Below the pieces are notes generated by a model. It did not search any database, was not told the DNA's origin, and worked only from the letters and a program-made list of their open reading frames with translations. The position numbers and the translations under genes were made by a program. Positions 7,643 through 37,332 of a stretch of 64,000 nucleotides of DNA are shown here, in pieces. Numbering within the stretch: the stretch's first letter is position 1; each line of letters starts with the position of its first letter. Source of the stretch: Bacteroidales bacterium. GTDB taxonomy: Bacteria > Bacteroidota > Bacteroidia > Bacteroidales > UBA932. The stretch covers positions 21,384-85,383 of the forward strand of contig JAVBOE010000017.1 in the NCBI GenBank assembly GCA_031550925.1. The letters run 5' to 3'.

Positions 7643-8830
7643 TCAGCTTATTGAAGAAAAGAGTAATGACGAATCATTCCCCCCGAATCCGAATGAGTTA
7701 GACAAAACATGCTCTATCGGTAGGAGCTGTCTATATCCCAAAACAGGACTAAGTCTTGTACCTTCTATCGGATTTTTAAAGTTAAGATTAGGATATATAA
7801 TACCCATTGCCACAGAAAGAACCGATAGCACAGCCTCTATGCCCTCTGCCGCTCCCAATGTGTGACCAATAAAGGCTTTTACAGAGCTGAAAAGAGGAAT
7901 ACTATCTCCGAATAGCCTTTCAATTGCTCTTGCTTCAGACAAATCATTATTTGGTGTTCCTGTTCCATGAACGTTTATATATCCTACTTCCGAAGGTTTT
8001 ATGCCTGCCATTTCTATGCTTTGGCGCATACACTCGTATGGCCCGTCTCCATCCGGTGAAGTTGCCGTTTGGTGGTATGCATCGTTGGCATTGGCATATC
8101 CTGTGAGCAGGCAATATGGATCTGAGTATAGAGAATAATCATTTTGCAAAACAATATAGCCTGCGCCTTCTCCGATGTTGAGCCCTGCTCGTGAAGCATC
8201 AAATGGCCTGCAATGCTCACTATCCAATATCATCAATGAGTTGAAACCGTTGAGTGTAAACTTACAAAGAGAATCTACACCACCTACAATTACAGCATCC
8301 AGCAGGCCGTTTTTTATCATTCGGGCACCCATAATAATTGCATTTGCGGCAGAAGAACAAGCAGTACTTATGGTTGTAACAAACTCTGTAATGCCTAAAT
8401 ATTCGGCAATTTGCTGTGTGCTATATCCACAATCGTGTTGAGCGAATAGCTGTACATCTGCTTGCTGAGGGTTATCCTTAAAACCAGCGTAAGCCTGTTC
8501 GCTCAAATCCATTCCGCCTACTGAGGTTGAAGAGATAAATCCGGTACGAAATGCTTTTACATTATTAATTCCGGAAGTTTGCAGTGCCTCTTTTGCTGCA
8601 ACCATACCAAGCAATGTAGTGCGACTATATGTTTTTGCTGCAGGCAAGCCGAGCATTTCTTTTAGCAGGCTATTGCTCCGCTTTACTTCGCTAACAGTTG
8701 CATTAAGGGTTGTAGGGAATAGCGTAACAGGTCCCATACCATGCTTAACGGATGACAGAGCATCCAAATGCTCACGAACATTTGTGCCTATACCCGATAT
8801 TGCTCCTATGCCTGTTACGTATATTTTCAT
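7643..8830 (-). CDS. Beta-ketoacyl-ACP synthase (FabF/FabB-type KS)
   Basis: STACSSAANAI (Cys), NVHGTGTPNND, IGHTLGAAEG, FGFGGND. Confidence 0.9.
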   Translation of the reverse strand: MKIYVTGIGAISGIGTNVREHLDALSSVKHGMGPVTLFPTTLNATVSEVKRSNSLLKEMLGLPAAKTYSRTTLLGMVAAKEALQTSGINNVKAFRTGFISSTSVGGMDLSEQAYAGFKDNPQQADVQLFAQHDCGYSTQQIAEYLGITEFVTTISTACSSAANAIIMGARMIKNGLLDAVIVGGVDSLCKFTLNGFNSLMILDSEHCRPFDASRAGLNIGEGAGYIVLQNDYSLYSDPYCLLTGYANANDAYHQTATSPDGDGPYECMRQSIEMAGIKPSEVGYINVHGTGTPNNDLSEARAIERLFGDSIPLFSSVKAFIGHTLGAAEGIEAVLSVLSVAMGIIYPNLNFKNPIEGTRLSPVLGYRQLLPIEHVLSNSFGFGGNDSSLLFSSIS

Positions 8831-9084
8831 TACTTCCGGTTTGCTTGTATGTAGTCTGCCAATGTGCGGATTGAGTGAAATATCTCTTTCCCTTCCGATG
8901 GGTTCTGAATTTTTATTCCATAGCTACGCTCAAGAATTAGCATAATCTCTAGGGCATCAATTGAATCAAGTCCAAGCCCTTCGCCAAAAAGAGGAGCATC
9001 AGCATCAATATCTGCAGGTGTAATTTCTTCGAGGTTTAGCTCTTGGATAATCTGTTGTTTTAATTTTTCAATTAGCTCTTCCAT
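8830..9084 (-). CDS. Acyl carrier protein
   Basis: 84 aa with GLDSIDALE phosphopantetheine-Ser motif. 1-nt stop/start overlap with the downstream KS. Confidence 0.9.
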   Translation of the reverse strand: MEELIEKLKQQIIQELNLEEITPADIDADAPLFGEGLGLDSIDALEIMLILERSYGIKIQNPSEGKEIFHSIRTLADYIQANRK

Positions 9085-9086
9085 GG

Positions 9087-10817
9087 TTATTTTGTTTTTA
9101 TTAGTTCAAATTCTGCTTTGTAATTTCCATCTAAAAATTCGCACCAACCACATATACAAAATGATAAACCGCTGTCTTGCATGGCCAGCTGTACATATCT
9201 TTTTATGGTCTCGGGAGAGTAATTTTTTTCAATAAAAAAGGTGTTCTCTCCTTGTATTTTATGATGTATGCAAATTTCTCCTGCCACCACATTTGGCAAC
9301 GTATATACAAATACAGCAGGGCTAGCTGCCACATCTCCTCCATCGTCTATCAGCTGCTGATGCTTCTTATCTGTATCTAGCGATGCTGCTGAGTTTGATA
9401 GTATAATGCCAATTTTTGTAGGCTCTGTTTTTTCTTCATCTTTCAGCAAATAAGCAGCAGCAATATAGCCCAACTTTGACAAGTCGTCCATCTTGTAAAA
9501 CTTCATATTGCTTTCGTTGAATTTTTTGTATGCCTCACGGATAAAGGAAGAGAAGTCTGGTGCTTCTGATTTGAAAACAACCTTATTGTTAATAGTAACT
9601 ATATTATTTTCAACGATACAACGCTTTACAGAATTGCAACTTATTTTTTGTTTACTTGTATTTTTTTGTATTTTATTTTCTATGGATAAAACAATAGCAG
9701 CATTACACCCCCCGAATCCGGAGCCTGTTTTTATACACGATTTTGCAGTCGTTTTATGATGTTTGTTGCTAATCGCTAAAGGTTGAGATACGCCGTTATT
9801 TTCGTATCCAAGTGTACCAAAGACAACTTCATTTCTCAGCTGTTGTATGCTTAAAATTGATTCAACCACTCCCGATGCTCCCAATGTATGTCCTAAGTAT
9901 GGTTTGAGGCTGTTTACCATTGTGTTTTGTAGCTGTGCCCAATGAACGGCTTTCGCTTCCATTTCGTCGTTAAAAACAGTTGCTGTGCCGTGCAGGTTGA
10001 TGTATCCTATATCATCTTTAGTAAGCCCGGCATCATCTAACGCACCTTGTATGGCATAGAATAAACCATCTCCGGTGCGTGAAGGACCTGATATGTGGTT
10101 AGCATCGTTACTGATTGCTCCGCCGCATAGGGTTGCTGCATTGGGGCAATAAGCTGTGGTTAACAGTATGCTGGCACAGGCTTCTCCAAGGTTTAACCCG
10201 TCACGTTTTTCGTCATATGGGCGACAAATGTTCGGACTGACAGATTTAAAAGATACAAAACCGCTTGTGATAAAATGTGAAAGCACATCAACACCAACAA
10301 CTACAACATTCTGATAAATGTTGGCTTGTAGCAAACGCTTAGCGATGATTAATGCTGATATACCCGAAATGCAAGCGTTTGATACAACCGATACTCTATC
10401 ACCTAAATTGTAGTATGCCGAAATTTTATCTGCAATGCTCCACAAAAAAGCCGATTCGCTGATGTTTTCTGTTGCATTTTGTAGCATATCTATATTGCCC
10501 TTTGTTGTAGATATAATAAGGGCTGTATCAGATGAACTTAAGTCTGCTTTGTGCTGTTGCAACAGCTCATTTACAGATAAAATAATCAACTGCTCTGCTT
10601 TAGTGTATGCACTAAGGTTATATTTGTTTACTTGTTGGTTTAAAATTTCAGAACATATTTTTGCAGCCTGAATGGGTTGGTTTGAAATAGTACCACTTTT
10701 ATCCAGTTTAACGCCACTCTTGTATGCAAGAATAGCATCAAAATTCTGTTGGGTAGTAAATCCCAACGAGCTGATGATATTATCTGCTGCAATGTATATG
10801 TTTAGATTATTCCCCAT
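9087..10817 (-). CDS. Beta-ketoacyl-ACP synthase with about 190-aa C-terminal KS-N-terminal-like half domain
   Basis: SNACISGISAL (Cys), NLHGTATVFND, LGHTLGASG, GFGGCNAA. An extra domain follows (KMDDLSKLGYIAAAYLL, ILSNSAASLDTD, SPAVFVYTLPNVVAGEICI). The track start at 10829 is TTG, and the first ATG is at 10817. Confidence 0.8.
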   Translation of the reverse strand: MGNNLNIYIAADNIISSLGFTTQQNFDAILAYKSGVKLDKSGTISNQPIQAAKICSEILNQQVNKYNLSAYTKAEQLIILSVNELLQQHKADLSSSDTALIISTTKGNIDMLQNATENISESAFLWSIADKISAYYNLGDRVSVVSNACISGISALIIAKRLLQANIYQNVVVVGVDVLSHFITSGFVSFKSVSPNICRPYDEKRDGLNLGEACASILLTTAYCPNAATLCGGAISNDANHISGPSRTGDGLFYAIQGALDDAGLTKDDIGYINLHGTATVFNDEMEAKAVHWAQLQNTMVNSLKPYLGHTLGASGVVESILSIQQLRNEVVFGTLGYENNGVSQPLAISNKHHKTTAKSCIKTGSGFGGCNAAIVLSIENKIQKNTSKQKISCNSVKRCIVENNIVTINNKVVFKSEAPDFSSFIREAYKKFNESNMKFYKMDDLSKLGYIAAAYLLKDEEKTEPTKIGIILSNSAASLDTDKKHQQLIDDGGDVAASPAVFVYTLPNVVAGEICIHHKIQGENTFFIEKNYSPETIKRYVQLAMQDSGLSFCICGWCEFLDGNYKAEFELIKTK

Positions 10818-11248
10818 TTTTTCTTCCAATCCAAGTAGAATTCAGGATTAACCAGTTCAAGCTCACGATTTAGGTTTAGAAAAACCTGTATTGAACTTCC
10901 TGTTGCTACAACCGAATGGTCATCGGCTTTGTATATGGTATATTCGAAAAGAATTTTTGCAGCATCGGTGTTGATGTATCGGGTTTCGATAATTGCTTCG
11001 TCTCCTACGCTAAGCGGTTTTTTATACTGGCAATCTAAGCTGACAATAGGAGTCATAAAGCCATTTCTGTGCACGTCCATATAGCTTATGCCGTAGTGGT
11101 TGCCAAATGATTCGCGACCATCTTCGAAGTAACGTATATACTGACCATGCCATACAATCTGCATGAAATCTACCTCACTAAAACGAACGCGAATTGTTGT
11201 AGTATCGGTTAATGCTGCAATATTTGGTGTAATTTTTCTTTTCGACAT
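10802..11248 (-). CDS. 4HBT/YbgC-type hotdog acyl thioesterase
   Basis: RVRFSEVDFMQIVWHGQY motif, 148 aa. Confidence 0.75.
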   Translation of the reverse strand: MSKRKITPNIAALTDTTTIRVRFSEVDFMQIVWHGQYIRYFEDGRESFGNHYGISYMDVHRNGFMTPIVSLDCQYKKPLSVGDEAIIETRYINTDAAKILFEYTIYKADDHSVVATGSSIQVFLNLNRELELVNPEFYLDWKKKWGII

Positions 11249-11252
11249 TTAT

Positions 11253-11687
11253 TTACTCTTCTTTTTTCAAAAAAATCTTCATTCTGCATTCAGCCATTAG
11301 TTCGTCTGCAGCACTTGTTTTTGCTGAGATTAATGTAATATCTCCTAACTCTTGCATCACCTGAATCTCGGTATATAATTCACTACCGATTTGTGGTAAA
11401 TTATGTAGCTTAAACTTGTCAACAGAACCAATAAAGCCAAGGGAGACAGGCTCTCCTTTTTGCGTAGATATATAGCCCATGCGTGCCGCAGCCGATTGTG
11501 CAATGTGCTCAATTAATCCGACTTCTGCAAAATGATCTGATTGGCAGAAAATATTATCGGCTTGAATTGTTAAGCCCGAATATGAAGAATTACCATCAAT
11601 TCCGTAGAATTTATCAACCATGACAATGGGTGCACGTTGCGGTATTAGCTGCAGTATTTCTTCTCCTTGTAAAATAGCTTCTCGCAT
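11253..11687 (-). CDS. Hotdog-fold dehydratase (ApeI/ApeP-like)
   Basis: 144 aa with the hotdog pattern LIEHIAQSAA. Located between the thioesterase and the methyltransferase. Confidence 0.6.
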   Translation of the reverse strand: MREAILQGEEILQLIPQRAPIVMVDKFYGIDGNSSYSGLTIQADNIFCQSDHFAEVGLIEHIAQSAAARMGYISTQKGEPVSLGFIGSVDKFKLHNLPQIGSELYTEIQVMQELGDITLISAKTSAADELMAECRMKIFLKKEE

Positions 11688-11689
11688 GT

Positions 11690-12793
11690 TTAATCTTTTT
11701 TCTTACACTGAACAATGCTATGCCCCATTCCTAGGTTATCGTGAATTACTTCAACAGCAAGTCCGGCATCGCTTATGCAGCGTATCATATCTTCAGAATA
11801 ATACATTTTACTATTGCCGTTTGCCATTGCTGTAAAGTATATACTGGTTTGCGCCAAGCAGTATGATGCTGTTTCAAATCTTTGCCTATCCCAAAAAGTT
11901 TCCATGATGTAAAGACGAGCATTGCTGCTCATAGAAACAGCTGCACGCTGAAGTATGCTAACCACTTCTTCTTCCGAGAAGCAGTCGAGGAACTGGCTCA
12001 TCCATATGGCGTCATAACCTTTTGGGAAAGGAACGTTCTTATCCAATAAATTTACGCCATGACCATGAATGCGTTCCGCTCCGGTTTTACCTGCTGTGAA
12101 TTGTTTCATTAGCTCCAGCTGCTGAGGTAAATCCATGATGGTAACGTTAACTGTCGGATTATACTCAACACACTTAAGCGCCCAACGACCGGTGTTACCG
12201 CCAACATCAAGTAGGGTAGAAGGGTTATTGCCGAATACTATCTTAAGCGCTTCTTCAAAAGAACAATCAGAATAGTAGTGGTCAAAACCGAACCAGCTCT
12301 TTTGCACATGCTCTGGTAGGCTTGATAAACCTTCATATATTGTAGGCCAATCGCCAAAAACTTTTAGCCCTTCCGGCTTACCATTTAGCAACGCTTCTTC
12401 AAGATTGAATAGCCCGAGGTAGTTTACATCATGGTTAAAATCCAGGTTTACACGAGCCATTTTATCGTTTAGCAAAAACCATCCTGTTTTTGACAAAACG
12501 AAACGATTATCGTTAAGTAAAACCGTTTTTATTGTAAGCGATGATTCCAGAAGAACTTGGGTTGCGTATGGAGATAGCTTAGTGTGCTCGATGATTTCAT
12601 CTATGGTTAACCCGTCACGATTCTCGGCAAGTAAATCAAGAATGCCGAATTTTATCATTAGGCGGGATACTTGAAACACTACCGGAGCAAAAGCAATTTC
12701 TTGCGCCAACCGTTGTGCCTCTAGGGCTGTATGAGGTTCTTTTGAATATCGTTTTTTAAGTTCGTCAGATATATTCATGGTAATCGGTATCAT
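11690..12793 (-). CDS. Class I SAM-dependent methyltransferase with N-terminal winged-helix/dimerisation-like domain
   Basis: SAM motif I LLDVGGNTGRWAL. 367 aa, O-methyltransferase family-2-like layout. Confidence 0.75.
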   Translation of the reverse strand: MIPITMNISDELKKRYSKEPHTALEAQRLAQEIAFAPVVFQVSRLMIKFGILDLLAENRDGLTIDEIIEHTKLSPYATQVLLESSLTIKTVLLNDNRFVLSKTGWFLLNDKMARVNLDFNHDVNYLGLFNLEEALLNGKPEGLKVFGDWPTIYEGLSSLPEHVQKSWFGFDHYYSDCSFEEALKIVFGNNPSTLLDVGGNTGRWALKCVEYNPTVNVTIMDLPQQLELMKQFTAGKTGAERIHGHGVNLLDKNVPFPKGYDAIWMSQFLDCFSEEEVVSILQRAAVSMSSNARLYIMETFWDRQRFETASYCLAQTSIYFTAMANGNSKMYYSEDMIRCISDAGLAVEVIHDNLGMGHSIVQCKKKD

Positions 12794-12794
12794 G

Positions 12795-13679
12795 TTACCC
12801 CCAAAATTTATAGTAGTTAAACCATTGTTCGGGATATTCTTTTAGTATGCTTTCAAGCGTTTGCACGTATTGTTTTAGCTGCTCTTGTTCAGGTTTATCT
12901 CCAACTTTTCTAGCTGTTGGTTGTGCTATGCAAAAATGAAAGCGATATGTTTTATGCGGCTCCCTCATTGCAAAGTAAAAAACTACCGGGACTTTTAGTC
13001 GTGATGCCAGCAAAAACGGACCACCCGGAAATTTTGCTTCTTTTCCCATAAAAAAACAGGTCAGCAGCTTATCTTCTTTCACATAACGGTCTCCCTGAAA
13101 ACAAACGTACTCTTTGTTGTCTAACGCTGTTTTAATAGCAAAAACGTGCTCTAAATTATCGTTGTTAACCGCAACTATTTTATAATCGGCAAAAGCCTTA
13201 TTTTTTTCTAACACTTCTTTAATGCGCCTGTGCTCGGCATCGTAAAGCACTATGTTTATTTTTTTTCCATAACCCTCAAAGAACGGAGTCCCTATTTCCC
13301 AGCTGCCTACATGCGCCCCTATTATTATGGCTCCTTTATCATCGTTCAGTATTTCAAGAAATTTTTCGTAATTCTCAAACTTAAACTTGAACTTCTTTGT
13401 AAGCCCGCAACCAATGGCAACCTTATCTATTAGTATCTGTCCGAAACGATAGTAGTTCTTAAATAAAAAGCCTATGGATTTAAATACGTTTCGTTTTAGG
13501 ATTTTTCGGGAGTAAAACCACGAACTGGCTGTAGCCCTTGGTGCAAAAGGTATAAAATGGATAACAATAAAGGCAAGGAATGTATATGCAACATTAACTC
13601 CAAGATGCTTTATCAAATAGATAAAGAACAGGTATCCGAATTTTCCACCTCGTGTTTTGCCTTCCCACTCTGTAGCCAT
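12795..13679 (-). CDS. LpxL/HtrB-like lysophospholipid (lipid A-type) acyltransferase
   Basis: N-terminal TM helix and IIGAHVGSWE (HX4E) motif. Confidence 0.7.
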   Translation of the reverse strand: MATEWEGKTRGGKFGYLFFIYLIKHLGVNVAYTFLAFIVIHFIPFAPRATASSWFYSRKILKRNVFKSIGFLFKNYYRFGQILIDKVAIGCGLTKKFKFKFENYEKFLEILNDDKGAIIIGAHVGSWEIGTPFFEGYGKKINIVLYDAEHRRIKEVLEKNKAFADYKIVAVNNDNLEHVFAIKTALDNKEYVCFQGDRYVKEDKLLTCFFMGKEAKFPGGPFLLASRLKVPVVFYFAMREPHKTYRFHFCIAQPTARKVGDKPEQEQLKQYVQTLESILKEYPEQWFNYYKFWG

Positions 13680-13930
13680 TATTCCTCAACATTCATACGC
13701 GAAATAACGAAGTTGTAAAAATCCTGAACTGTTTGTACTCCAATAAAATCTTTACTGGTTACAGAAAATCCAAAATTTTGCTCAACTAAAACAACCATAT
13801 CTACCATATCTAAGCTGTCTAGCCGCAATACTTTCATCAAATTGGCATCCGGTTGAATTAATTCAATATCCGTTTCAAATTCGTCTGCTAAAGTTGCTCT
13901 AATCTTTTCGGTAATTTCTACAATTCTCAT
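13679..13930 (-). CDS. Acyl carrier protein
   Basis: 83 aa with RLDSLDMVDMV motif. 1-nt overlap with the downstream gene. Confidence 0.9.
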   Translation of the reverse strand: MRIVEITEKIRATLADEFETDIELIQPDANLMKVLRLDSLDMVDMVVLVEQNFGFSVTSKDFIGVQTVQDFYNFVISRMNVEE

Positions 13931-13960
13931 GGTTTCTGCTTAATATTGGTAATATTAAGT

Positions 13961-15184
13961 TTACTCTTTAAATTTTTTAATAATTAAGGTTGAGTTGGTT
14001 CCTCCAAAGCCAAATGAGTTGGATAGGAAGGTGTCAAACTCAATATCTACACGCTTTGAAGGAATATTGAGCAAGGAAGAAGTCTCGTCAGATTCTTCGA
14101 AGTTGATATTAGGAGCAACAAAATTATTCTGCATCATTAGGGTTGAGTAAACAATTTCGCTTGCACCTGCCATCCACATTTCGTGTCCGGTCATTGATTT
14201 AGTTGACGTAACCAGCGGACGGTATTCTCCAAAAACATCAATAATAGCTTGTGCTTCATTTAAATCGCCGATAGGCGTTGACGTTGCGTGAGCGTTGATG
14301 TATTTTATATCAGAAAGTTTTACGCCCGAAGATTCAATAGCCATCTGCAGCGATTTTTTAGAACCGTTGATGTTAGGCACAGACATGTGATCTCCGTTTG
14401 AAGAAAATCCGTAACCCATAATTTCGGCAAGAATAGGTGCTCCGCGTTTCTTCGCTGATTCGTAGCTCTCGATTACCAGACTTGCAGCACCTCCGCTCGG
14501 AACTAATCCATCGCGGTTTTTGTCGAATGGACGTGATGCTTTGTGAGGCTCATCTATGCGGGTAGAGAAGGTTCCTAACCCATCGAAGCTGCTAACCCCA
14601 AAAGGATTTACTTCTTGTGCGCCACCGCAAAGTATGCAATTTTGAAATCCATTCCCAATTAAAATGTAGGCCATACCAATAGAGTGAGAACCACTGGCGC
14701 ATGCCCCGGATATGGTAAAGCTGATACCTTTGAGCTTAAAAATAATGGAGAGGTTCATCGTTACAGTCGAGTTTAGCGCCTGAAAAACGGAACCGGCCCC
14801 TACAAGTGCTGTATTTCTCTTTGTCCTAACAGTATCACACGCTGTAATAATGGGAACAGCACTGCTGTCATTTCCATATAAAATTCCTACATCATTAGCC
14901 TCTAAAAACGCGCTGTCGATGCCTGCATTCCGAAATGCTTCTGCTGTTGCCATGTAGGCATATTCACCTTGTTCGGCAAGGTAGTTACGTTGACGCCTGT
15001 CAAGCAAAGGTTTTAAATCCGGACGCTCAATAATGCCTGTTAAGGGAGAAATAAACCCCAGCTCTTTACGTTCGGGGTCAATGCCAATGCCTGATTTTCC
15101 ATGATATAGCGAATCCTTTACCTCATTGAGATTTTTGCCTATACATGAGTATATCCCCATACCCGTTATTACAACTCTTTTCAT
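13961..15184 (-). CDS. Beta-ketoacyl-ACP synthase (KS)
   Basis: SGACASGSHSIG (Cys), NAHATSTPIGD, MTGHEMWMAGA, FGFGGTN. Confidence 0.9.
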   Translation of the reverse strand: MKRVVITGMGIYSCIGKNLNEVKDSLYHGKSGIGIDPERKELGFISPLTGIIERPDLKPLLDRRQRNYLAEQGEYAYMATAEAFRNAGIDSAFLEANDVGILYGNDSSAVPIITACDTVRTKRNTALVGAGSVFQALNSTVTMNLSIIFKLKGISFTISGACASGSHSIGMAYILIGNGFQNCILCGGAQEVNPFGVSSFDGLGTFSTRIDEPHKASRPFDKNRDGLVPSGGAASLVIESYESAKKRGAPILAEIMGYGFSSNGDHMSVPNINGSKKSLQMAIESSGVKLSDIKYINAHATSTPIGDLNEAQAIIDVFGEYRPLVTSTKSMTGHEMWMAGASEIVYSTLMMQNNFVAPNINFEESDETSSLLNIPSKRVDIEFDTFLSNSFGFGGTNSTLIIKKFKE

Positions 15185-15189
15185 TTTCG

Positions 15190-16728
15190 CTATAGCTCGA
15201 CTTCCGACAATTTGTGATTCTTCAAATACTCAACAAGTTTTTCTATATCCTTATACATTGGCTTATCTTCAACAAACACAGGGAAGATATCTCGTACTTC
15301 GGCATATATCTTTGCTGTTTTTGGAGATAGCTTTGATTGAATTTTCAGGTAATCTATGGCTTGTGCTATTGCCATAAATTGAATTGACAATACCTGAAAT
15401 GAATTCTCTATAACTGTTTTCGCAATTAGCGCCGAGTTAGTGCCCATGCTTACGATATCTTGATTGTCGTTGTTATTCGGGATGCTATGCACATACATCG
15501 GGTTCGACAACGTTTGGCACTCGGCGGTGGTTGATGTTGCCGTAAACTGTGCAGCTTGTAAACCGTAGTTAAGACCAAGCGTACCAAGATTTCCGAAAGG
15601 TGGAAGAATTTCGTTAATCTTATCATGGAAGATATAGTTAAGCTGTCGCTCGGCAAGCATGGTTAGCTTTGTAATCGCAATCTTCAGCTTATCCATTTCG
15701 TATGAAACATAATCGCCATGAAAGTTTCCGCCATGGTATATATTTTGCGAATCGGGGTCAACAATCGGATTATCACATGCCGAGTTGATTTCGTTAACCA
15801 AAACCTTTTCCGCATTTTTCAGCTCATCATATATAGGTCCTAGCACTTGTGGCACGCAACGAAGAGAATAGTATGGCTGTACTTTATGTGCAAAAATACG
15901 CTCTTCGTGCTTATGGCTATATAGCTCAATCTCTCGTTTACGAACACATTGACTGTCTTCTATCAGCTTAGTCATAATTTCGGCAATCTTGCTTTGTCCT
16001 TTGTGTCGTTTGGTATCGTTAAGCTCTTTCGCCATAAAGTCATCGTATGATGAAACGACTTCATTCACCATAACCGATGCTATAATTGACCATTGTAGCA
16101 GCTTACGGGCATATATCAGATTAACAAGCCCGATGCCTGTCATAACAGAAGTACCATTGGTTACTGATAATCCTTCGCGAATACGCATTGCAAAAGGTTT
16201 CAATCCTAGCTGTTTCATTACATCGGAACAGTTTTGAAGCTGACCATTGTAGTAAACCTCTCCTTCGCCAATAAATGTTAACGCAAGGTGTGCAAGCTGT
16301 ACCAAATCACCGCTAGCTCCAACGCTTCCATGCTCGGGAACGAATGGATATATCTCTTTATTGATAAAGTTTACAATAAGGTTAACCAGTTCAGGGTGTA
16401 CTCCCGATTTTCCTTGTAGAAAAGTATAAAGACGTGCGAGCATTGCAGCCCTCACATAAATGGGCTCTAGTGGTTTTCCCGCTCCAACCGAGTGGCTGCG
16501 AATTATGTTATACTGTAGCTCTGTTAGGGCTTTGTCGTCTATTCTGTATTGAGCCATTGGCCCAAAGCCTGTATTAATACCGTAGATAACTTTATTAGCA
16601 GAGAAATCTTCCAAAAAGTCGAAGCTTCTTTGCACTTCGGCCATGGTTTCTTTCAGGATAGCTATCGGTTGCTTATCAAATACTATATTTTTTATCGACT
16701 CTAGGTCTATCAACGCGTTTTGTTCCAT
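15190..16728 (-). CDS. MIO-dependent aromatic amino acid ammonia-lyase (HAL/TAL family; probable tyrosine ammonia-lyase of the cluster)
   Basis: GSVGASGDLVQLAHL carries the Ala-Ser-Gly MIO triad, with NTGFGPMAQ and HGGNFHG also present. It is the first gene of the polyene operon, as in flexirubin clusters. Confidence 0.85.
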   Translation of the reverse strand: MEQNALIDLESIKNIVFDKQPIAILKETMAEVQRSFDFLEDFSANKVIYGINTGFGPMAQYRIDDKALTELQYNIIRSHSVGAGKPLEPIYVRAAMLARLYTFLQGKSGVHPELVNLIVNFINKEIYPFVPEHGSVGASGDLVQLAHLALTFIGEGEVYYNGQLQNCSDVMKQLGLKPFAMRIREGLSVTNGTSVMTGIGLVNLIYARKLLQWSIIASVMVNEVVSSYDDFMAKELNDTKRHKGQSKIAEIMTKLIEDSQCVRKREIELYSHKHEERIFAHKVQPYYSLRCVPQVLGPIYDELKNAEKVLVNEINSACDNPIVDPDSQNIYHGGNFHGDYVSYEMDKLKIAITKLTMLAERQLNYIFHDKINEILPPFGNLGTLGLNYGLQAAQFTATSTTAECQTLSNPMYVHSIPNNNDNQDIVSMGTNSALIAKTVIENSFQVLSIQFMAIAQAIDYLKIQSKLSPKTAKIYAEVRDIFPVFVEDKPMYKDIEKLVEYLKNHKLSEVEL

Positions 16729-19534: not shown

Positions 19535-19535
19535 G

Positions 19536-19609
19536 TCGGGGTACCAGGACTCGAACCTGGGACCCCCTGCTCCCAAAGCAGGTGCGCTAGCCAACTGCGC
19601 CACACCCCG
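19536..19609 (-). tRNA. tRNA-Pro (anticodon UGG)
   Basis: Hand-folded cloverleaf: acceptor CGGGGTG/TACCCCG, D arm GCGC-AGTTGGCTA-GCGC, anticodon loop TTTGGGA, T arm CCAGG-TTCGAGT-CCTGG. No encoded CCA. Confidence 0.9.
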
Positions 19610-19647
19610 ATAATCGTAAAAATGGTAGGCTTTCCATTTTCGAGGAG

Positions 19648-19655
19648 CAAAGGTA
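19648..19655 (-). promoter_or_regulatory. -7 box TACCTTTG upstream of tRNA-Pro(UGG)
   Basis: Perfect TAnnTTTG on the minus strand. It has the same tACCTTTGCT context as the other tRNA-Pro promoter. Confidence 0.5.
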
Positions 19656-19677
19656 TAAAAAATCCGGATATACCAAG

Positions 19678-20835
19678 CTATTTTTCTAAATCGGATATGG
19701 GAATTGTTTTCCGAATCACCTCATTTGCCTGTTTATCATTGATTATCACGTAGAAATTTTCTTTATCGCTCATGCAGTAAAAATCGATATAGCTGATATT
19801 CGCGGTATGAATTTTCCACCGCTTACGAACAATACCATCTCTGGTTACGTAGGCTACAAATAAGCTTTCGCCGGAGCTAAACGTAGAGATAAATCCTTTA
19901 GCAATAGGTATGCTAGTATGCTTATATACAGCCAAATCTTCTGCTATAGGTAGCTGTTTAATTTGCTTGTAGTCCGCGTCGAGAATTTTTACGCAAAAAG
20001 TATTCTCGTTTTTTATAATCAAGGCCAGCCTGTTGTCTATATCCAGCAGCTCAATTGAGTTGGGAATATCCTTGCTTAGTAAAGAGCCGTCTCCTTGATT
20101 TATAATAGGTATATGCCTGTTTACGGTAAAATTTCCGTTGAACTCTGTTAGAATAAATAGCCCGTTAGCTTCGTTATTTTCTTTTGCAATAGGGTGCGTG
20201 CCGGATACCTCAGTACATACTATTTGCTTGCCGTTGAAAGCTGTAGCGGTATAAGCCTTTACTAAACCAAAATTTTGAGCTAAACCTTCGGGGTACTCAA
20301 ATAAAGAGATTGGAGGGATTGCCCACACGCCCTTGTCTGTAAGGTAGCCGTAAAACAGCTTATTGTCCATATAGGCATATCCGGCTAACGATAGTATGAG
20401 CCAATGGTTATTAAAGAAGTGAAAATGAGGCAGCGATAAACCTATAGACTCTTCGCCCATGCCCTTCAGCTTATCGCCCATAAAATCTGTTATTACACCA
20501 TCTTGTAGCTTAGAGAAAACGAAGCGATTCATCAAAACATCATAAAACGCTAAGCTATGGCCTGCAAAGTTAAAAAGATGAGGCTTATAAAAAATTTCGG
20601 GTTTATACTTCTCAATGCTATCGATAGATGCTCTGTACAACCAAAGTTCTTTTCTGCTTGTTTGAGAGCTAATTAACATTAGCGTATCGCCATGTGCCTC
20701 TAAAAGCTCGTTACTTTTTGATGGAAAAAGAATTTTTTCTGGAGCATTGTACGATGCGATATTTTGAGCATTGTTGGCGCTTATAATAGCAAGCGAAGAA
20801 GCAGCAACCAAAAATACTTTTTTCAAAAGATTCAT
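19678..20835 (-). CDS. Secreted hypothetical protein (no recognisable domain)
   Basis: 385-aa ORF with signal peptide MNLLKKVFLVAASSLAIISANNAQ. No motif I can assign. Confidence 0.6.
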   Translation of the reverse strand: MNLLKKVFLVAASSLAIISANNAQNIASYNAPEKILFPSKSNELLEAHGDTLMLISSQTSRKELWLYRASIDSIEKYKPEIFYKPHLFNFAGHSLAFYDVLMNRFVFSKLQDGVITDFMGDKLKGMGEESIGLSLPHFHFFNNHWLILSLAGYAYMDNKLFYGYLTDKGVWAIPPISLFEYPEGLAQNFGLVKAYTATAFNGKQIVCTEVSGTHPIAKENNEANGLFILTEFNGNFTVNRHIPIINQGDGSLLSKDIPNSIELLDIDNRLALIIKNENTFCVKILDADYKQIKQLPIAEDLAVYKHTSIPIAKGFISTFSSGESLFVAYVTRDGIVRKRWKIHTANISYIDFYCMSDKENFYVIINDKQANEVIRKTIPISDLEK

Positions 20836-20914
20836 ATTACTAGGCTTTTAAAGTTTGCGACAAAGTTCGGTAATTTTTGTACACGGACAAATTGTTGTGA
20901 TTATGATTTATTTT

Positions 20915-20922
20915 TACCTTTG
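20915..20922 (+). promoter_or_regulatory. -7 box TACCTTTG upstream of tRNA-Pro(CGG)
   Basis: Perfect TAnnTTTG, 16 nt before the tRNA 5' end. A GTTG lies 17 nt upstream. Confidence 0.55.
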
Positions 20923-20937
20923 CTGTTCAAAATTAAT

Positions 20938-21011
20938 CGGGGTGTAGCGCAGTTGGCTAGCGCGCCACGTTCGGGACGTGGAGGCCGAAGGTTCGAGTCC
21001 TTTCACCCCGA
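20938..21011 (+). tRNA. tRNA-Pro (anticodon CGG)
   Basis: Hand-folded cloverleaf: acceptor CGGGGTG/CACCCCG, anticodon stem CCACG/CGTGG with loop TTCGGGA, T loop TTCGAGT. Confidence 0.9.
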
Positions 21012-21206
21012 CTAATATTCTGAACGACAGATTCTCAGAAAGTTATCTTGTTGTTTTTTTGCCAAGATACACTTTAGATACAATTAAAAATATCCTACGT
21101 GTTTAACGGCTTTTTCCAGCGGAATTTTTTTTATAGTGAAGAGGTTAAATTTTTTAGACAACCTCTCCCTATAAATTTTATACCTTGCGGTTAAAATCTT
21201 TTACTT

Positions 21207-22486: not shown

Positions 22487-22577
22487 ACAATGTGTTAATG
22501 TGCTAATATGAGAAGGTGAGAATGAAAAGATGCACTAGCGGGTAGTATGACACAGAGAAAAATGTTTCTGCATGTTG
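22487..22577 (+). repeat. Upstream flank module of family-A repeat (copy 1), direct repeat of 26643-26729
   Basis: acaatGtgttaatgtgctaatatgaGaaGgtgagaatgaaaa matches 26643 onward at about 39/42 positions. Looser homology continues up to the palindrome. Confidence 0.7.
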
Positions 22578-22645
22578 CCCCTAAATCCCCTAAAGGGGAC
22601 TTTAAACCAGCGCCTCCGGAAAGTCCCCTTTAGGGGATTTAGGGG
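22578..22645. repeat. Family-A palindromic element, copy 1 (about 25-bp arms cccctaaatcccctaaaggggactt / aagtcccctttaggggatttagggg)
   Basis: Perfect inverted arms around the loop taaaccagcgcctccgga. The palindrome extends outward as ctgcatgttg...taacatgcag (22568-22655). Confidence 0.9.
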
Positions 22646-22702
22646 TAACATGCAGTACGCTGAATGAGGAAATACCCTAAGTCGCTGTACTCTCTTTTTC
22701 GC

Positions 22703-22710
22703 TATCTTTG
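22703..22710 (+). promoter_or_regulatory. -7 box TATCTTTG upstream of first NamZ-like gene
   Basis: Perfect TAnnTTTG, 43 nt upstream of the ATG at 22753. Confidence 0.45.
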
Positions 22711-22752
22711 TTTTTACAATAAGAGGAATGTTTCACTAATAACTATACTGCT

Positions 22753-23949
22753 ATGAAAAAATTTTTACTTGGGTTAACCATGTTAGGTTGCGTTGTGGGT
22801 ATGAGCTGCAAAGGAAAAACCCCGAACGCTGCAACCGATGAGTCCACTAAAATTATTACGGGTGCTGAGCAGCTAGACCAATATCTGCCTTTACTCGAAG
22901 GTAAAAAGGTTGGTATGATGGGCAACCAAACCTCAGAAATTGATGGTAAGCATTTGGTTGATGTCCTTTTGGAGAAAGGTGTTGATTTAAAGTTTGCCTT
23001 TGCTCCGGAGCATGGTTTCCGTGGCGATATTGAAAGAGGAGAGAAAGTAGATAACGATTTCGATAAGCAAACAGGTCTTCCGCTTTATTCTTTGTATGGA
23101 AAGCATGGCAATAACCCCGATTCGATTGTAGCATCAGTTGATATTATGATTTTTGATATACAAGATGTAGGTGCCCGCTTTTATACATATACTGCCTCAA
23201 TGCACCGTTTAATGCAGCTTTGCGCCAATACCAACAAGCCGTTAATAATACTCGATCGTCCTAACCCCAACGGCGATCAGGTGGACGGACCTGTTCGTAA
23301 AGACGATAAGTTCAAGTCGGGCATTAGCTATCATAAGGTTGCCATGATTCACGGATTAACTACCGGAGAATTGGCTCAAATGATTAACGGAGAAGGCTGG
23401 CTTGATAATGGCGCACAATGCGATATAACCATTATTCCTGTTAAAAATTATACGCATAAAATGCAGTACAAGCTACCGGTTGTTCCTTCGCCCAGCTTAC
23501 CAACTCAGCTATCAATTCGCTTATACATGTCGCTTTGCCTATTTGAGGGAACAACCATTAACGAAGGTCGCGGAACCGACTTCCCATTTGAAGTATATGG
23601 ATATCCCGATCCTTCGTTTGGTGATTTCACGTTTACACCCGGAGGTCGTCCTGGCGTAAGCGCACATGTTACACAACAAGGTAAGCTATGCTATGGTGTG
23701 GATTTACGTGGTTTAAATCCAGCAGAAGCAAAATTTACATTGAAGTATGTGCTTGATGCATACCACAAAGTTCCCAATGATTTCTTTTCTCGTCCCGAGT
23801 TCTTTGATAAGCTTGCCGGTACAGATAAGCTGCGCGAGCAGATGATTGCAGGTCTGACAGAAGAACAGATTCGCGACAGCTGGAAAGAAGAGCTTACCGA
23901 GTACAAGGCTATGCGTAAAAAATATTTGTTGTACGAAGATTTTGAATAG
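22753..23949 (+). CDS. DUF1343 / NamZ-family (exo-beta-N-acetylmuramidase-like) lipoprotein, paralog 1
   Basis: Lipobox VGMSC. Family blocks MGNQTS, APEHGFRG, FDIQDVGARFYTY, LDRPNPNG. Confidence 0.8.
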   Translation: MKKFLLGLTMLGCVVGMSCKGKTPNAATDESTKIITGAEQLDQYLPLLEGKKVGMMGNQTSEIDGKHLVDVLLEKGVDLKFAFAPEHGFRGDIERGEKVDNDFDKQTGLPLYSLYGKHGNNPDSIVASVDIMIFDIQDVGARFYTYTASMHRLMQLCANTNKPLIILDRPNPNGDQVDGPVRKDDKFKSGISYHKVAMIHGLTTGELAQMINGEGWLDNGAQCDITIIPVKNYTHKMQYKLPVVPSPSLPTQLSIRLYMSLCLFEGTTINEGRGTDFPFEVYGYPDPSFGDFTFTPGGRPGVSAHVTQQGKLCYGVDLRGLNPAEAKFTLKYVLDAYHKVPNDFFSRPEFFDKLAGTDKLREQMIAGLTEEQIRDSWKEELTEYKAMRKKYLLYEDFE

Positions 23950-24074
23950 AACAAAGATTACGTGTTAATGGTTAATCGTTAGCTGAAAAGAAGTAAGTAA
24001 TTTGATGGTTCAAATTTTTGAATTACTTATATCTTTAAATTAGTTCAAACTTTTGTTTAATACATCGCTGAGAA

Positions 24075-24848
24075 ATGAAGGGACGTGAAGACATGCAGCT
24101 GGCTGTACTTATTGATGCGGATAACGTAACCTACTCTAACATCAAAGGTATGCTGGAGGAGATTGCGAAAATAGGAAACCCGACAATAAAGAGAATCTAC
24201 GGAGATTGGACTAAGCCAGCGGTTTCGGGCTGGAAGCAGCCTTTGTTGGAGAATGCAATAACTCCTATTCAACAGTACAGCTACACTACCGGGAAAAACG
24301 CAACAGATTCTGCCATGATTATTGATGCCATGGATATTCTGCATAGTCGGCAGGTAGATGGCTTTTGCTTAGTTTCCAGCGACAGCGATTTTACCCGCTT
24401 AGCTATTAGGCTGAGGGAGGCAGGCATGCTGGTAATTGGTATCGGCGAAAGAAAAACACCTCAACCGTTTATTGTTGCTTGCGATAAGTTTATTTACCTC
24501 GAGATAATAGGAAGGGCTGATGATGCAGAAGATGCTGATAAAAGTGTTCGTTCGACTGATACAAAATCAAAAGAAGGCCCAACCGTACATTTCGAGAAGA
24601 TAGACAAGAAGCTCATTAAATTGCTAAAAACCTCGGTCGAAGATTTAGCCGACGATAATGGTTGGGCTTTTCTTGGAGATGTTGGTAACCTTATCAGCAA
24701 AAAGAAACCCGACTTTGATTCGCGTAACTATGGCTTCCCTAAGCTTACACCGTTGTTTAAATCCCTGAAAAAAGATTTTGAAATAGACGAAAGGGATACC
24801 GGCGGAGGTGGTCAGATAAGACATATTTATGTTAGAGTAAAAAAATAA
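24075..24848 (+). CDS. NYN (LabA-like) nuclease domain protein with C-terminal OST-HTH/LOTUS domain
   Basis: N-terminal LAVLIDADNV...RIYGDW...VSSDSDF (NYN acidic residues). C-terminal GWAFLGDVGNLISKKKPDFDSRNYGFPKLTPLF (LOTUS-like). An alternative ATG is at 24093. Confidence 0.75.
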   Translation: MKGREDMQLAVLIDADNVTYSNIKGMLEEIAKIGNPTIKRIYGDWTKPAVSGWKQPLLENAITPIQQYSYTTGKNATDSAMIIDAMDILHSRQVDGFCLVSSDSDFTRLAIRLREAGMLVIGIGERKTPQPFIVACDKFIYLEIIGRADDAEDADKSVRSTDTKSKEGPTVHFEKIDKKLIKLLKTSVEDLADDNGWAFLGDVGNLISKKKPDFDSRNYGFPKLTPLFKSLKKDFEIDERDTGGGGQIRHIYVRVKK

Positions 24849-24852
24849 ACAG

Positions 24853-26055
24853 ATGAAAAAGCTTATACCAATAGCATTAGTGCTGCTTTTCTTTGTTACA
24901 GGTTGCAAAGAAAAGAAAACCGAAGTAGCCGCACCCGCAATTATGACAGGTGCCGAGCAGCTGGACGAATATCTGCCTTTGCTGGAAGGCAAGACGGTAG
25001 GTGTTCTGGGTAACCAGACATCTGTTGTTGGCGATCAACATTTGGTAGATGTATTGCTAGAGAAAGGCGTAGATATTAAGTTTGTCTTTGCCCCCGAGCA
25101 TGGCTTTAGAGGCTCTGTTACCGGCGGTATTGAGATTAACAATGAGCTGGACGAAAAAACAGGATTACCCATTTATTCAGTGTACGGAACGCATGCAGCT
25201 GATGCTAAAAATGCTACAACCGACTCCCTAGTTGCTTCGGTAGATGTAATGCTGTTTGATTTGCAGGACGTGGGTGCGCGCTTTTACACCTACATTACAT
25301 CGTTGCATCAGCTTATGCAGCTATGTGCCGATAATAATACGCAGCTGATGATACTGGATCGCCCTAACCCCAACGGTGATCAGGTGGACGGACCTGTTCG
25401 TAAAAGCGATGACTTTAAGTCGGATGTCAGCTACCACAAGATCGCAATGGTGCATGGATTAACCGTTGGAGAGCTGGCACAAATGATTAACGGCGAGGGT
25501 TGGCTGAACAATGGTACTCCCTGCAAGCTTCATGTTGTTAAGGTGAAGAACTACACGCATAAGTCTATGTATGAGATACCAACAATTCCATCGCCCAGCT
25601 TGCCCAACCACTTGTCGATTCGTCTATATCCGTCGCTATGTTTGTTTGAGGCGACACCTGTAAGCGTTGCGCGTGGTACGGATTTCCCGTTTCAGGCAAT
25701 AGGATATCCCGATGAAACAATGGGCGAATTTACGTTTACACCCGAATCTAGAGAAGGGATGACTACTCCCTTACAGAACGGAAAGCTTTGCTATGGCATA
25801 GACTTACGCAACATAAATGCCGATAGCGTAAAGTTCTCGCTTAAGTATATCCTCGACTTTTACCAAAAATCACAAGGTAAATTCGAGTTCTTTTCTCGTG
25901 CTAAACGCTTCGATCAGCTTGCCGGAACAGATCAGCTGCAAGAGCAAATTAAAGCCGGATGGACGGAAGAACAAATCCGTGATAGCTGGAAAGACGACCT
26001 TGTGGCATATAAGCAAATGCGTAAGAAATACCTGCTATACGAGGACTTTGAGTAG
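24853..26055 (+). CDS. DUF1343 / NamZ-family lipoprotein, paralog 2
   Basis: Lipobox FVTGC. It has the same blocks as paralog 1 (GNQTS, APEHGFRG, FDLQDVGARFYTY, LDRPNPNG). It starts 4 nt after the NYN gene stop. Confidence 0.8.
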   Translation: MKKLIPIALVLLFFVTGCKEKKTEVAAPAIMTGAEQLDEYLPLLEGKTVGVLGNQTSVVGDQHLVDVLLEKGVDIKFVFAPEHGFRGSVTGGIEINNELDEKTGLPIYSVYGTHAADAKNATTDSLVASVDVMLFDLQDVGARFYTYITSLHQLMQLCADNNTQLMILDRPNPNGDQVDGPVRKSDDFKSDVSYHKIAMVHGLTVGELAQMINGEGWLNNGTPCKLHVVKVKNYTHKSMYEIPTIPSPSLPNHLSIRLYPSLCLFEATPVSVARGTDFPFQAIGYPDETMGEFTFTPESREGMTTPLQNGKLCYGIDLRNINADSVKFSLKYILDFYQKSQGKFEFFSRAKRFDQLAGTDQLQEQIKAGWTEEQIRDSWKDDLVAYKQMRKKYLLYEDFE

Positions 26056-26199
26056 CGTTATATAGATTTTAAGACTTAAGGATTTCAAGACTTAAAGACT
26101 TTTTATTGATAATCAAAATATTGTCTTTCTTGTAGCTGCAGCTATGTGTTAGGCTTTATATAATCTTTTCAAAGAACGATACAATCAGACTAAATTTAT

Positions 26200-26261: not shown

Positions 26262-26345
26262 GGGTTACCAAGCATGTTACCCTACATGTTACCTTGTATG
26301 TAACCATCTATGTTACCAAGTATGTTACCTAGAGTAACATACTTT
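26262..26345 (+). repeat. Six direct GTTACC(N6) repeats with exact 12-bp phasing plus one inverted copy
   Basis: GT(T/A)ACC begins at 26264, 26276, 26288, 26300, 26312 and 26324. An inverted copy gtaacat lies at 26334-26340. Confidence 0.85.
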
Positions 26346-26642: not shown

Positions 26643-26729
26643 ACAATATGTTAATGTGCTAATATGAAAATGTGAGAATGAAAAATCCAGTTCATGGGTT
26701 GATATTACTCCAAAAAGCCCAGCATGATG
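26643..26729 (+). repeat. Upstream flank module of family-A repeat (copy 2)
   Basis: Direct repeat of 22487-22577 (acaatAtgttaatgtgctaatatgaAaaTgtgagaatgaaaa...). Confidence 0.7.
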
Positions 26730-26799
26730 CCCCTAAATCCCCTAAAGGGGACTTTTTCCGGAGGTACTGGTTTAAAGTCCCCTTTAGGGGATTTAGGGG
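26730..26799. repeat. Family-A palindromic element, copy 2 (loop inverted relative to copy 1)
   Basis: Arms are identical to copy 1. The loop tttccggaggtactggttta is the reverse complement of the copy-1 loop apart from 2 substitutions and 2 extra T. Confidence 0.9.
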
Positions 26800-26954
26800 C
26801 AATTACAAAGTGCTAAATTCAACATCTTACATACATTCAGGAGATGTCTCACTACGTTCAACATGGCCTATGTTTTCGCTGTACACATATCGCAATACGC
26901 TGCGCCCCCTTTTTCGTGATACTTGATACTTGTGTTTTGATACTATTCAGCCTT

Positions 26955-27000
26955 GCTAAAAAGAAAAGAGAGCTGCAATCAACCATTGTAGCTCTCTTTT
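26955..27000 (-). terminator. Intrinsic terminator of trxA
   Basis: 16-bp stem aaaagagagctgcaat/attgtagctctctttt (one G-U pair), 5-nt loop. A T-run follows on the minus strand. Confidence 0.7.
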
Positions 27001-29745: not shown

Positions 29746-29837
29746 GAGACAAATGGACTTTAAGACTGGAAGACTAATAGACAAAAGAAGAGAGAGAAAA
29801 GAGTATAGAGCAAAAAGAAAAGGGAATAATAACATAT

Positions 29838-31366: not shown

Positions 31367-31397
31367 AATGTAGGTTTATTAGGTTATGTATTTGTTA

Positions 31398-31518
31398 TTT
31401 TGAGCAAAGCGAGAAATATCCTTAATAGAAGCACGATACAAGTATCATGAAAAAACGTTAGACTATACTTAATTCAACGTACTACTACTATTGAGGATAT
31501 TTCTCGCTTCGCTCGAAA
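31398..31518. mobile_element. MITE-like 121-bp element with about 24-bp terminal inverted repeats (family B ends, family C core)
   Basis: The left end tttgagcaaagcgagaaatatcct matches the reverse complement of the right end, tttcgagcgaagcgagaaatatcct (2 differences). The interior has gcacgatacaagtatcatg, which is the reverse complement of 37311-37329. Confidence 0.6.
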
Positions 31519-31534
31519 TAACGATAAATGTGTT

Positions 31535-35597: not shown

Positions 35598-35848
35598 TAA
35601 TAATATAGTTTAGTGAAAATGATAATGCAAAGTTAAAATGAAATCCGATAAATCTTACTTAAATTGACGTTTTAGTGTAAAACATTTATTTTTAGAATAT
35701 TGTATGCGATGTGAACTCGGTACTTTAATGTAAAGTCTGATAAATAAATACATTTATAAGTGAGATAATATTTTGATTCTCAATAAAAATCTTTAAGTCT
35801 TATAGTCTTTAAATCTTGGAGTCTATGTAAAGTGCTAAATCATCTTGT

Positions 35849-37310: not shown

Positions 37311-37332
37311 CATGATACTTGTATCGTGCATC
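37311..37332 (+). repeat. Family-C motif catgatacttgtatcgtgcatc (GATAC-N2-GTATC dyad)
   Basis: The 18-mer atacttgtatcgtgcatc is identical at 38864-38881. The 19-mer catgatacttgtatcgtgc is the reverse complement of 31431-31449. Confidence 0.85.

Follow-up and report, generated by a model that had tools for sequence, protein, structure and literature searches.

We have analyzed a 64,000-nt stretch of a Bacteroidales genome, presumably from a termite gut (assembly GCA_031550925.1, contig JAVBOE010000017.1, positions 21,384 to 85,383), referred to here as the window, which carries three copies of a palindromic doublet, that is, a pair of identical inverted arms around a short loop. In copy 1 the loop is reverse-complemented with respect to copies 2 and 3. 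Relatives of the doublets in other genomes are associated with genes for a small nuclease of the DUF559 family, and the inverted loop looks like the footprint of a template switch during replication.

The window is about 40% G+C, and its genes are of Bacteroidota type, among them those for DUF2851, two NamZ paralogues, an NYN-LOTUS protein, an S41 protease, GcvH, a GNAT protein and UppP/BacA. The NYN-LOTUS gene stands between the NamZ (exo-beta-N-acetylmuramidase) paralogues (22753-26055), whose best-matching DNA segments share about 75% identity. Upstream of the first NamZ gene is copy 1; copy 2 is downstream of the other. All three doublets are intergenic and each is located 3' of at least one gene. 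No recombinase gene adjoins any of the three copies. A single public sequencing run, an invertebrate-gut metagenome designated run X1, contains the window sequence.

Arms, loops and flanks of the doublets

The window contains six perfect matches to the 25-nt arm, CCCCTAAATCCCCTAAAGGGGACTT, which form three inverted pairs; shuffled sequences contain none. The layout of the arm is C4-TAAAT-C4-TAAA-G4-ACTT. Each arm has a 4-bp mini-hairpin of its own, the CCCC-TAAA-GGGG mini-palindrome, which reads CCCCTAAAGGGG or CCCCTTTAGGGG; these six sites are all that the window contains, against an expectation of 0.24. Three copies with identical arms of about 25 nt and a mini-hairpin within each arm had been described in an initial reading made from the sequence only (the sequence-only reading), and both descriptions are borne out. 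The arms of copy 1 are at 22578-22602 and 22621-22645 and its loop, 22603-22620, is TAAACCAGCGCCTCCGGA. Copy 2 (26730-26799) has arms at 26730-26754 and 26775-26799 and the loop TTTCCGGAGGTACTGGTTTA at 26755-26774; copy 3 (51131-51196) has arms at 51131-51155 and 51172-51196 and the loop TTGGAAGTGCAGGTTT at 51156-51171, oriented as in copy 2. No strand is assigned to the palindromes. The extent first given for copy 1 was too short: CTGCATGTTG and TAACATGCAG extend its arms to 36 nt with 97% complementarity (22568-22603 and 22620-22655), so that the whole palindrome spans 22568-22655. With perfect arms, the full hairpins of the three copies are 66-70 bases in length, and folding of the single-stranded DNA gives -33 to -41 kcal/mol (z = -9 to -13). 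At the foot of the hairpins the sequence is TTG/CCCC, ATG/CCCC or AA/CCCC. No Rfam 15 family was found at the element, where matches to generic hairpins (miRNA precursors) stay below threshold at 40 bits versus 79; two tRNAs are the only Rfam matches in the window at the gathering score.

The loop of copy 1 matches the reverse complement of the copy 2 loop at 16 of 20 positions and the copy 2 loop read directly at 9 of 21, while copies 2 and 3 match directly at 13 of 20. Copy 1 is therefore the flipped one. Its loop agrees with the reverse complement of the copy 3 loop at 12 of 18 positions. The inverse relationship of the loops of copies 1 and 2 had been noticed before and is upheld; the copy 2 loop then quoted was two T residues short of its real length of 20 nt.

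A fourth palindromic doublet with another arm variant, also without an assigned strand, was read directly from the sequence at 60784-60901. It has the form CCCCT-CATT-CCCCTCTCC-CAAG-GAGAGGGG ... CCCCTCTCC-TTGG-GAGAGGGG-TT-AGGGG with a 44-nt spacer, and its flanks add a 7-nt palindromic extension, cacctca/tgaggtg, to an architecture like that of the three copies.

Upstream of copies 1 and 2 the two sequences agree at 68 of 96 positions. The conserved part of this co-linear flank is a 42-nt module on the + strand (consensus ACAATrTGTTAATGTGCTAATATGArAAkGTGAGAATGAAAA), found at 22487-22528, 49 nt upstream of copy 1, and at 26643-26684, 45 nt upstream of copy 2, with 39 of 42 positions identical. 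An 8-10-nt motif, GCATG(T/A)TG, adjoins the arm, and the spacer between module and motif agrees at 23 of 43 positions, no better than shuffles. The direct repeat of 90 bp that had been proposed for this region thus holds for the module and the arm-adjacent motif and not for the spacer between them. Words of the module have a depth of about 65 in run X1, where unique flanks reach about 9, and the further copies of the module there adjoin diverse sequences; the co-linear flank is thus a small dispersed repeat in its own right. Searches with the module gave only three chance-level matches in the GTDB representatives and none in the JGI metagenomes.

Closer to the arms, the doublets have GCATGTTG as outer motif on one side and CAAyT..TGCTAAATT on the other. 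The left motif, TCTGCATGTT, is common to copies 1 and 3 on the + strand (p=0.009); it is found as CTGCATGTTTG at 51120-51130 in copy 3 (+ strand), as CTGCATGTTG at 22568-22577 in copy 1, and more weakly as GCATGATG at 26722-26729 in copy 2. The right motif is common to copies 2 and 3 (p=0.01), as CAATTACAAAGTGCTAAATT at 26800-26819 (+ strand) and CAACTTAGAATGCTAAATT at 51197-51215. Copy 1 has AACATGCAG in place of the right motif, and this sequence equals the left-flank motif of copies 1 and 3 when that is reverse-complemented (p=0.008). No significant likeness was found between the left flank of copy 1 and the reverse complement of the right flank of copies 2 and 3. Further out on the right side of copy 1, GCTGAAT versus GCTAAAT appears co-linear by eye and is not significant.

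Related genomes contain sites at which the doublet is absent. The L-numbers used here designate sampled loci from species-representative genomes. The nearest DUF2851 protein among the GTDB representatives, with 76% identity, is at locus L123, in a metagenome-assembled genome (MAG) labelled Prevotellaceae that, from its isolate name, we take to be of termite-gut origin. In L123 the spacer between the DUF2851 and NamZ genes is 78 nt long and has neither the 42-nt module nor the hairpin nor the right flank; the window has about 200 nt extra. A second empty site was found by comparing the orthologous loci L099 and L027. A hairpin pattern specific for the loop had no match in the GTDB representatives or the JGI metagenomes.

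In run X1 the depth of arm words is 2,000-16,000, against about 9 for unique sequence, and metatranscriptome contigs from that study are likewise rich in arm words. Logan contigs (k=31) of the run, which are 1-1.6 kb long at the flanking genes, end inside the arm, and in one DNA and two RNA runs no contig crosses copy 1 or copy 2. Beside copy 1, at 22657-22795, Logan contig cover of run X1 is almost nil (depth 0-6, with unique neighbours at about 9), which may reflect a strain difference or dropped short contigs.

DUF559 genes between and around the arms

The exact 25-mer arm is present at more than 120 loci among the matches listed from species-representative genomes. In the Bacteroidota its hosts include Bacteroidales, Prolixibacteraceae/Marinilabiliales, Cytophagales (Larkinella, Spirosoma), Pedobacter, Chitinophagales/Saprospiraceae, Flavobacteriaceae and Balneolaceae; Thiotrichaceae and a few Pseudomonadota MAGs carry it as well. 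It is found alone, self-paired with spacers of 14-430 nt, or paired with variant arms such as AGCCCCCTTTAGGGGGTTGGGGG. The design common to the arm superfamily, C4-6 / N2-6 / C4-6 / N3-5 / G4-6, is spread over the Bacteroidota.

At three of the sampled loci, namely L064, L240 and, with two cassettes in tandem, L045, what lies between two exact inverted arms is a DUF559 gene of 119-144 amino acids; this gene-bearing form is 400-430 nt long. The cassette genes match Pfam PF04480 with E values of 4e-32 to 8e-35 (110.9 and 119.4 bits, against a cut-off of 20.6), and the nearest solved structure is PDB 3HRL (E = 5.5e-17). A survey of the PD-(D/E)XK nucleases groups DUF559 with Vsr and with the homing endonuclease of PDB 3r3p, I-Bth0305I (PMC3424549). 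Among 120 arm-centred loci DUF559 is the sole recurrent small nuclease within 300 nt of an exact arm; ABC and efflux genes also recur there. In three cassettes, of which two carry the labels of different orders (Bacteroidales and Cytophagales), the arms are identical at 25 of 25 positions on both sides, the proteins are about 50% identical, and the outside flanks are unrelated. The arms are thus much more constrained than the gene that they enclose. A contig of run X1 also has a DUF559 gene with arms of the window's type (family A) on both sides; its depth, 22 versus 9, assigns it to a different member of the community.

The association was quantified on 80 DUF559 loci of one clade, seeded from the arm-associated genes. 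Around these genes there are 167 arm motifs in 244.5 kb, versus none in 504 kb of control Bacteroidota loci, some of which are from the same genomes. An arm lies within 160 nt upstream of the gene at 32 of the 80 loci, downstream at 38, and on both sides at 26. Arm density falls with distance from the gene: within 250 nt of the gene ends there are 80 arms at 57 loci, or about 2.8/kb, against a background of 0.034/kb in arm-bearing genomes, an enrichment near DUF559 genes of this clade of about 80-fold. The D...ExDG..H core and an open frame are kept in 78 of the 80 genes.

The arms near DUF559 genes are arranged as single arms, doublets or tandem arrays. In L232 (1190-3010) there are tandem left-type arms upstream of the gene and more than 10 right-type units of 29 nt downstream, and in L217 the order is LLL RRR gene R LLL RR. 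Each downstream unit of L232 is followed by a near-identical 40-nt spacer, with a period of 69 nt; this arrangement is CRISPR-like at first sight, yet the spacers are all alike. Two DUF559 paralogues within one MAG (L231 and L232) have different arm variants. The DUF559 locus of Pedobacter is syntenic across several species, within the his operon, and the arm variant differs from species to species; this speaks for vertical inheritance, which is also the mode of RAYT genes (described below). In Pedobacter sp. UBA4863 (L263, 1420-3320), and also in L226, the frame of the DUF559 cassette in the histidine operon passes through the arm (…ASPLRGGGG…) into hisF, and in Pedobacter a right-type arm is in frame in the N-terminus of a hisIE-like open reading frame (ORF) (…GKTPPSGGWGVPVIVQD…). 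In P. chinensis (L248) another palindrome family is found at that spot. Translated arms give pseudo-peptides of the SPFRGLGG/PLNPLKG type at the tail of the L045 ORFs, and such peptides are probably present more widely in Bacteroidota annotations. For annotation, the arms account for spurious ORF extensions and in-frame insertions.

On this evidence the cognate gene of the arm superfamily appears to be the small DUF559 endonuclease, a Vsr-like PD-(D/E)XK enzyme. Other candidate mobilisers had been suggested at the outset, among them the tyrosine transposase associated with repetitive extragenic palindromes (REPs), known as RAYT, and the TnpA of IS200/IS605. A crude motif test for the HUH...Y(I/V)xxNP signature of these enzymes found no open frame of 100-399 amino acids carrying it in the 1.72 Mb scanned, which comprised the 120 arm-centred loci, the DUF559-centred loci, the control loci and the window. 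No such enzyme accompanies the arms in this sample, and the gene associated with them is DUF559.

The closest parallel to this arrangement is provided by the REP/REPIN-RAYT systems (REPtrons and bacterial interspersed mosaic elements, BIMEs), in which REPINs are REP doublets that form hairpins. In both cases there is a short (20-40 nt) multicopy palindromic unit that forms inverted doublets as long hairpins, of which the window has three in 64 kb, and these are mostly extragenic and at times in frame in genes. In both cases, too, single units, doublets and arrays surround one small nuclease gene at a syntenic locus, with variants that differ between species and between paralogues. The associated gene is different, being a Vsr-like PD-(D/E)XK DUF559 rather than an HUH Y1 transposase. 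REPs have a GT[AG]G guide tetranucleotide at the 5' foot and are species-specific in sequence (PMC6006769), whereas the arm has neither GTAG nor GTGG and is identical across orders and even phyla.

The doublets also share several properties with miniature inverted-repeat transposable elements (MITEs), namely 25-bp terminal inverted repeats, a short non-coding interior, a longer gene-bearing version and presence/absence polymorphism. They differ from MITEs in that they have no target-site duplication, the sole gene found between the arms is DUF559 rather than a DDE or other known transposase family, a left arm of one variant may be joined with a right arm of any other, and arms are also found alone and in tandem arrays. 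As to the protein, the partner of the arms is a member of the Vsr/DUF559/DUF2726 clade of PD-(D/E)XK nucleases, which holds both a sequence-specific nicking repair enzyme and the selfish homing endonuclease I-Bth0305I (PMC3424549). In the literature searched, which did not extend to subscription journals, no link was found of DUF559 or COG2852 with repeats, of the arm sequence with any report, of Vsr-like proteins with inverted repeats, or of REPINs with the Bacteroidota, and cognate flanking palindromic repeats are not reported there for any member of the clade.

The inverted loop and its possible origin

The order of segments at copy 1 is left flank, arm, reverse-complemented loop, arm and reverse-complemented left flank, and the original left flank is kept. 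A comparable event was found at an independent place, the orthologous loci L072 and L088 of two other genomes. Their flanks are co-linear and 83-84% identical. Between them lies a 60-nt composite of a family-A arm and a B-type arm that is reverse-complemented in one locus relative to the other (56 of 61 positions match in the inverted alignment versus 43 of 66 in the direct one). When so aligned the composite is about 95% identical, with all three differences in two tetraloops. Because the two arms differ, the inversion in this case is not an assembly ambiguity. On its left side L088 has 12 extra nucleotides (ATACGGGATCAA) that repeat its right flank (ATCCCGTAT) in inverted and imperfect form, with the last three bases unpaired; the right flank itself remains in place. 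Few other orthologous pairs have arms on both sides; L011 and L105 share an orthologous hairpin, with loops too diverged to be oriented (31/55 versus 27/55). Among DUF559 loci with common flanks, which form syntenic groups in Pedobacter, Chitinophagaceae and Flavobacterium, none has its 400-nt cassette inverted, so a short-range replication error fits better than an invertase.

Template switching between inverted repeats gives spacer inversion, arm homogenisation and arm expansion (PMC8604942, PMC13100816, PMC8794818). An inverted spacer or element together with arm expansion by an inverted copy of the flank is present both in copy 1 and in L088 relative to L072. Since the inverted flank was copied and the original kept in both cases, the event was duplicative and not conservative. 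To judge from this pattern, the flipped loop looks like the footprint of a replication template switch and not the product of a flip-flop machine. The copy 1 flip would then be a secondary event, in which the polymerase switched templates between the two perfect arms at the time of replication. The nascent strand would leave its template in one arm and pair with the complementary arm of the other strand; the spacer and arm would be copied from that opposite strand, followed by 10 nt of the left flank; and return to the original template would leave an inverted loop in a palindrome whose arms had grown from 25 to 36 nt. Such switching suffices for the flip, so that no dedicated enzyme is needed for the flip itself. 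Template switching is a mutational process; it accounts for the flip and leaves the spread and conservation of the arms unexplained.

Of the two origins that the sequence-only reading had offered for the flip, inversion in place through arm-arm recombination is supported as to the place, by the left flank of copy 1, co-linear with that of copy 3, and by L072/L088, and not supported as to recombination, given the duplicated inverted flank. The forms of it that we considered were RecA or a site-specific invertase acting on the arms, or cruciform processing, in the manner of viral flip/flop termini. Perfect inverted arms of 25-36 bp and a reverse-complemented loop with the flanks otherwise in place are what such a conservative inversion would produce, and the termini of parvoviruses and poxviruses likewise show two loop orientations between identical arms. 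However, a conservative inversion cannot create the duplicated inverted flank that is seen in both flipped cases. A spacer of 16-20 bp is also too short for synapsis of the duplex arms, and neither a recombinase beside the copies nor an inverted cassette was found. Viral flip/flop, moreover, depends on the ends of a linear replicon, where the hairpin is transferred by nicking and copying in each replication round, whereas the doublets are internal chromosomal sites between housekeeping genes. We therefore regard conservative inversion as extremely improbable. The other proposed origin was insertion in either orientation, with copy 1 as an opposite-orientation insertion of the whole unit at a palindromic site that the element prefers. 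In agreement with this proposal are the right flank of copy 1, where the motif would have travelled along with the element, the presence and absence of the family at orthologous sites, and the sequence CTGCATG...CATGCAG, which can be read as a split palindromic target. On the left side of copy 1, however, the motif is co-linear and not the right motif in reverse-complemented form, so that the prediction holds for one flank only. The L072/L088 composite in both orientations would need two independent insertions at one nucleotide position, and no target-site duplications were seen. An event in place is better supported, and insertion as a unit is unlikely. The orientation of the copy 1 loop might also be an artefact of assembly, a palindromic bubble having been resolved wrongly, since, at 25-36 nt, the arms match short assembly k-mers in length and the k=31 Logan contigs do break in the arm. 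But the arm-flank junctions of copy 1 differ (TTG/CCCC, versus TTA/CCCC on the other strand), so that reads or k-mers longer than about 31 nt fix the orientation. The palindromisation of the flank is independent of loop orientation, and L072/L088 involves two different arms. An artefact of this kind is scarcely credible.

Two further alternatives concern the nature of the element rather than the flip. The doublets could be passive and immobile, serving the host as terminators, mRNA-stabilising hairpins or protein-binding sites and being kept by host selection. This would agree with their intergenic location 3' of genes, with the abundance of arm words in the metatranscriptome and with the very stable hairpin. 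An intrinsic terminator, with a GC stem, a loop of 3-8 nt and a T tract, does not describe them: no T tract follows the stem, no terminator was called at copies 1 and 3 (tails TAACATG and CAACTTA), and separate hairpins with GC stem and T tail are found at 51258-51296 and at about 26958-27000. The hairpin is missing from the orthologous spacer of L123, and the distribution of the arm spans orders and phyla and includes the surroundings of DUF559 genes, tandem arrays and an in-frame position in a hisIE-like ORF. A passive host element is accordingly quite improbable, although some doublets might secondarily have been co-opted as RNA elements. The original suggestion of an active DNA-level mechanism rather than a passive terminator is supported by the presence and absence at orthologous sites, the lack of a T tail, the separate terminator-like hairpins nearby and the conservation of arms across orders, but the flip itself calls for no dedicated enzyme. 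Classical REPs or REPINs with a RAYT as their enzyme would share the doublet architecture, and Bacteroidetes RAYTs with atypical flanking structures have been reported, the sequences not being given (PMC6006769). Against this stand the absence of GT[AG]G at the foot (the flank being TTG/CCCC), the absence of an HUH...Y(I/V)xxNP frame in the 1.72 Mb, and the identity of the arm across orders where REPs are species-specific. This alternative is very improbable.

The explanation that we prefer, and to which we give roughly even chances, is that the hairpins are non-autonomous doublets of the REPIN kind, that DUF559 is the cognate protein of their superfamily, and that the flip of copy 1 is the footprint of a template switch. 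The repeated unit is the 25-nt arm, two of which, inverted around a short variable spacer, form a long hairpin. The gene-less hairpins of the window would be non-autonomous copies, spread or kept perfect in trans by a DUF559 nuclease encoded elsewhere in the genome. This nuclease would probably nick at or near the arm, with copying or repair to follow.

Several points weigh against this explanation and must be taken with it. There is no DUF559 gene in the 64-kb window. The nuclease part rests on association and conservation and not on activity, and the enrichment of arms applies to the one clade of DUF559 genes that was sampled. No target-site duplication was found, the flanks of the elements being unrelated or inverted and never direct. 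Arms that are identical beside proteins only about 50% identical represent a looser relationship than REP-RAYT co-evolution, and a host factor could read the arms instead. The evidence for the flip consists of two cases without an outgroup, and in the window the loop orientation depends on one assembly.

It is possible, and we put this forward tentatively, that the Bacteroidota and some other phyla harbour a second system of the REPIN-RAYT kind, in which a vertically inherited DUF559 is the cognate enzyme of palindromic doublets and spreads them or maintains their perfection through nick-initiated copying or gene conversion. Such a system would also account for the pseudo-peptides of the SPFRGLGG/PLNPLKG type. 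If this is true, DUF559, a very large family of unknown function, would have its first biological role, and one that can be tested. In that event the REP/RAYT paradigm of a domesticated nuclease with its cognate palindromes would have originated twice, the second time from a nuclease with an unrelated fold. Conservation of the arm at the level of single bases across orders, with cargo that drifts, is not usually seen in bacterial interspersed repeats and points to a highly specific and exploitable protein-DNA recognition. The footprints with both a flip and an arm extension would be clean natural cases of template-switch mutation enlarging palindromes.

Other repeats in the window

A different palindromic family is represented by the motif GAGCGAAGCGAGAAAT, which lies in 38-nt inverted arms at 31394-31431 and 31485-31522 and as a single arm at 58181-58204. 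A second short motif, CACGATACAAGTATCA, is common to three sites; the positions for the two motifs taken together are 31394-31522, 58181-58204, 37311-37336 and 38856-38881.

Two tRNA-Pro genes (anticodons TGG and CGG) are inverted with respect to each other at 19535-21012 and are 79% complementary over 80 nt. Between them is an ORF of 385 amino acids on the minus strand (19678-20835) without a Pfam match.

AGAC runs with an 8-nt period (AGACTTAAAGAC...) are found just before or after genes at 26058-26103, 29747-29787, 42687-42727 and, inverted, 35785-35830. Three such runs adjoin a segment of 60-80 nt that is about 76% conserved, at 26101-26182 and, inverted, at 35728-35789 and 55811-55892. 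Finally, the 1-kb non-coding stretch between the second NamZ gene and a thioredoxin-like ORF contains an iteron-like run at 26262-26342, in which ATGTTACC / GTAACAT units, six or seven in number, are spaced by about 12 nt.

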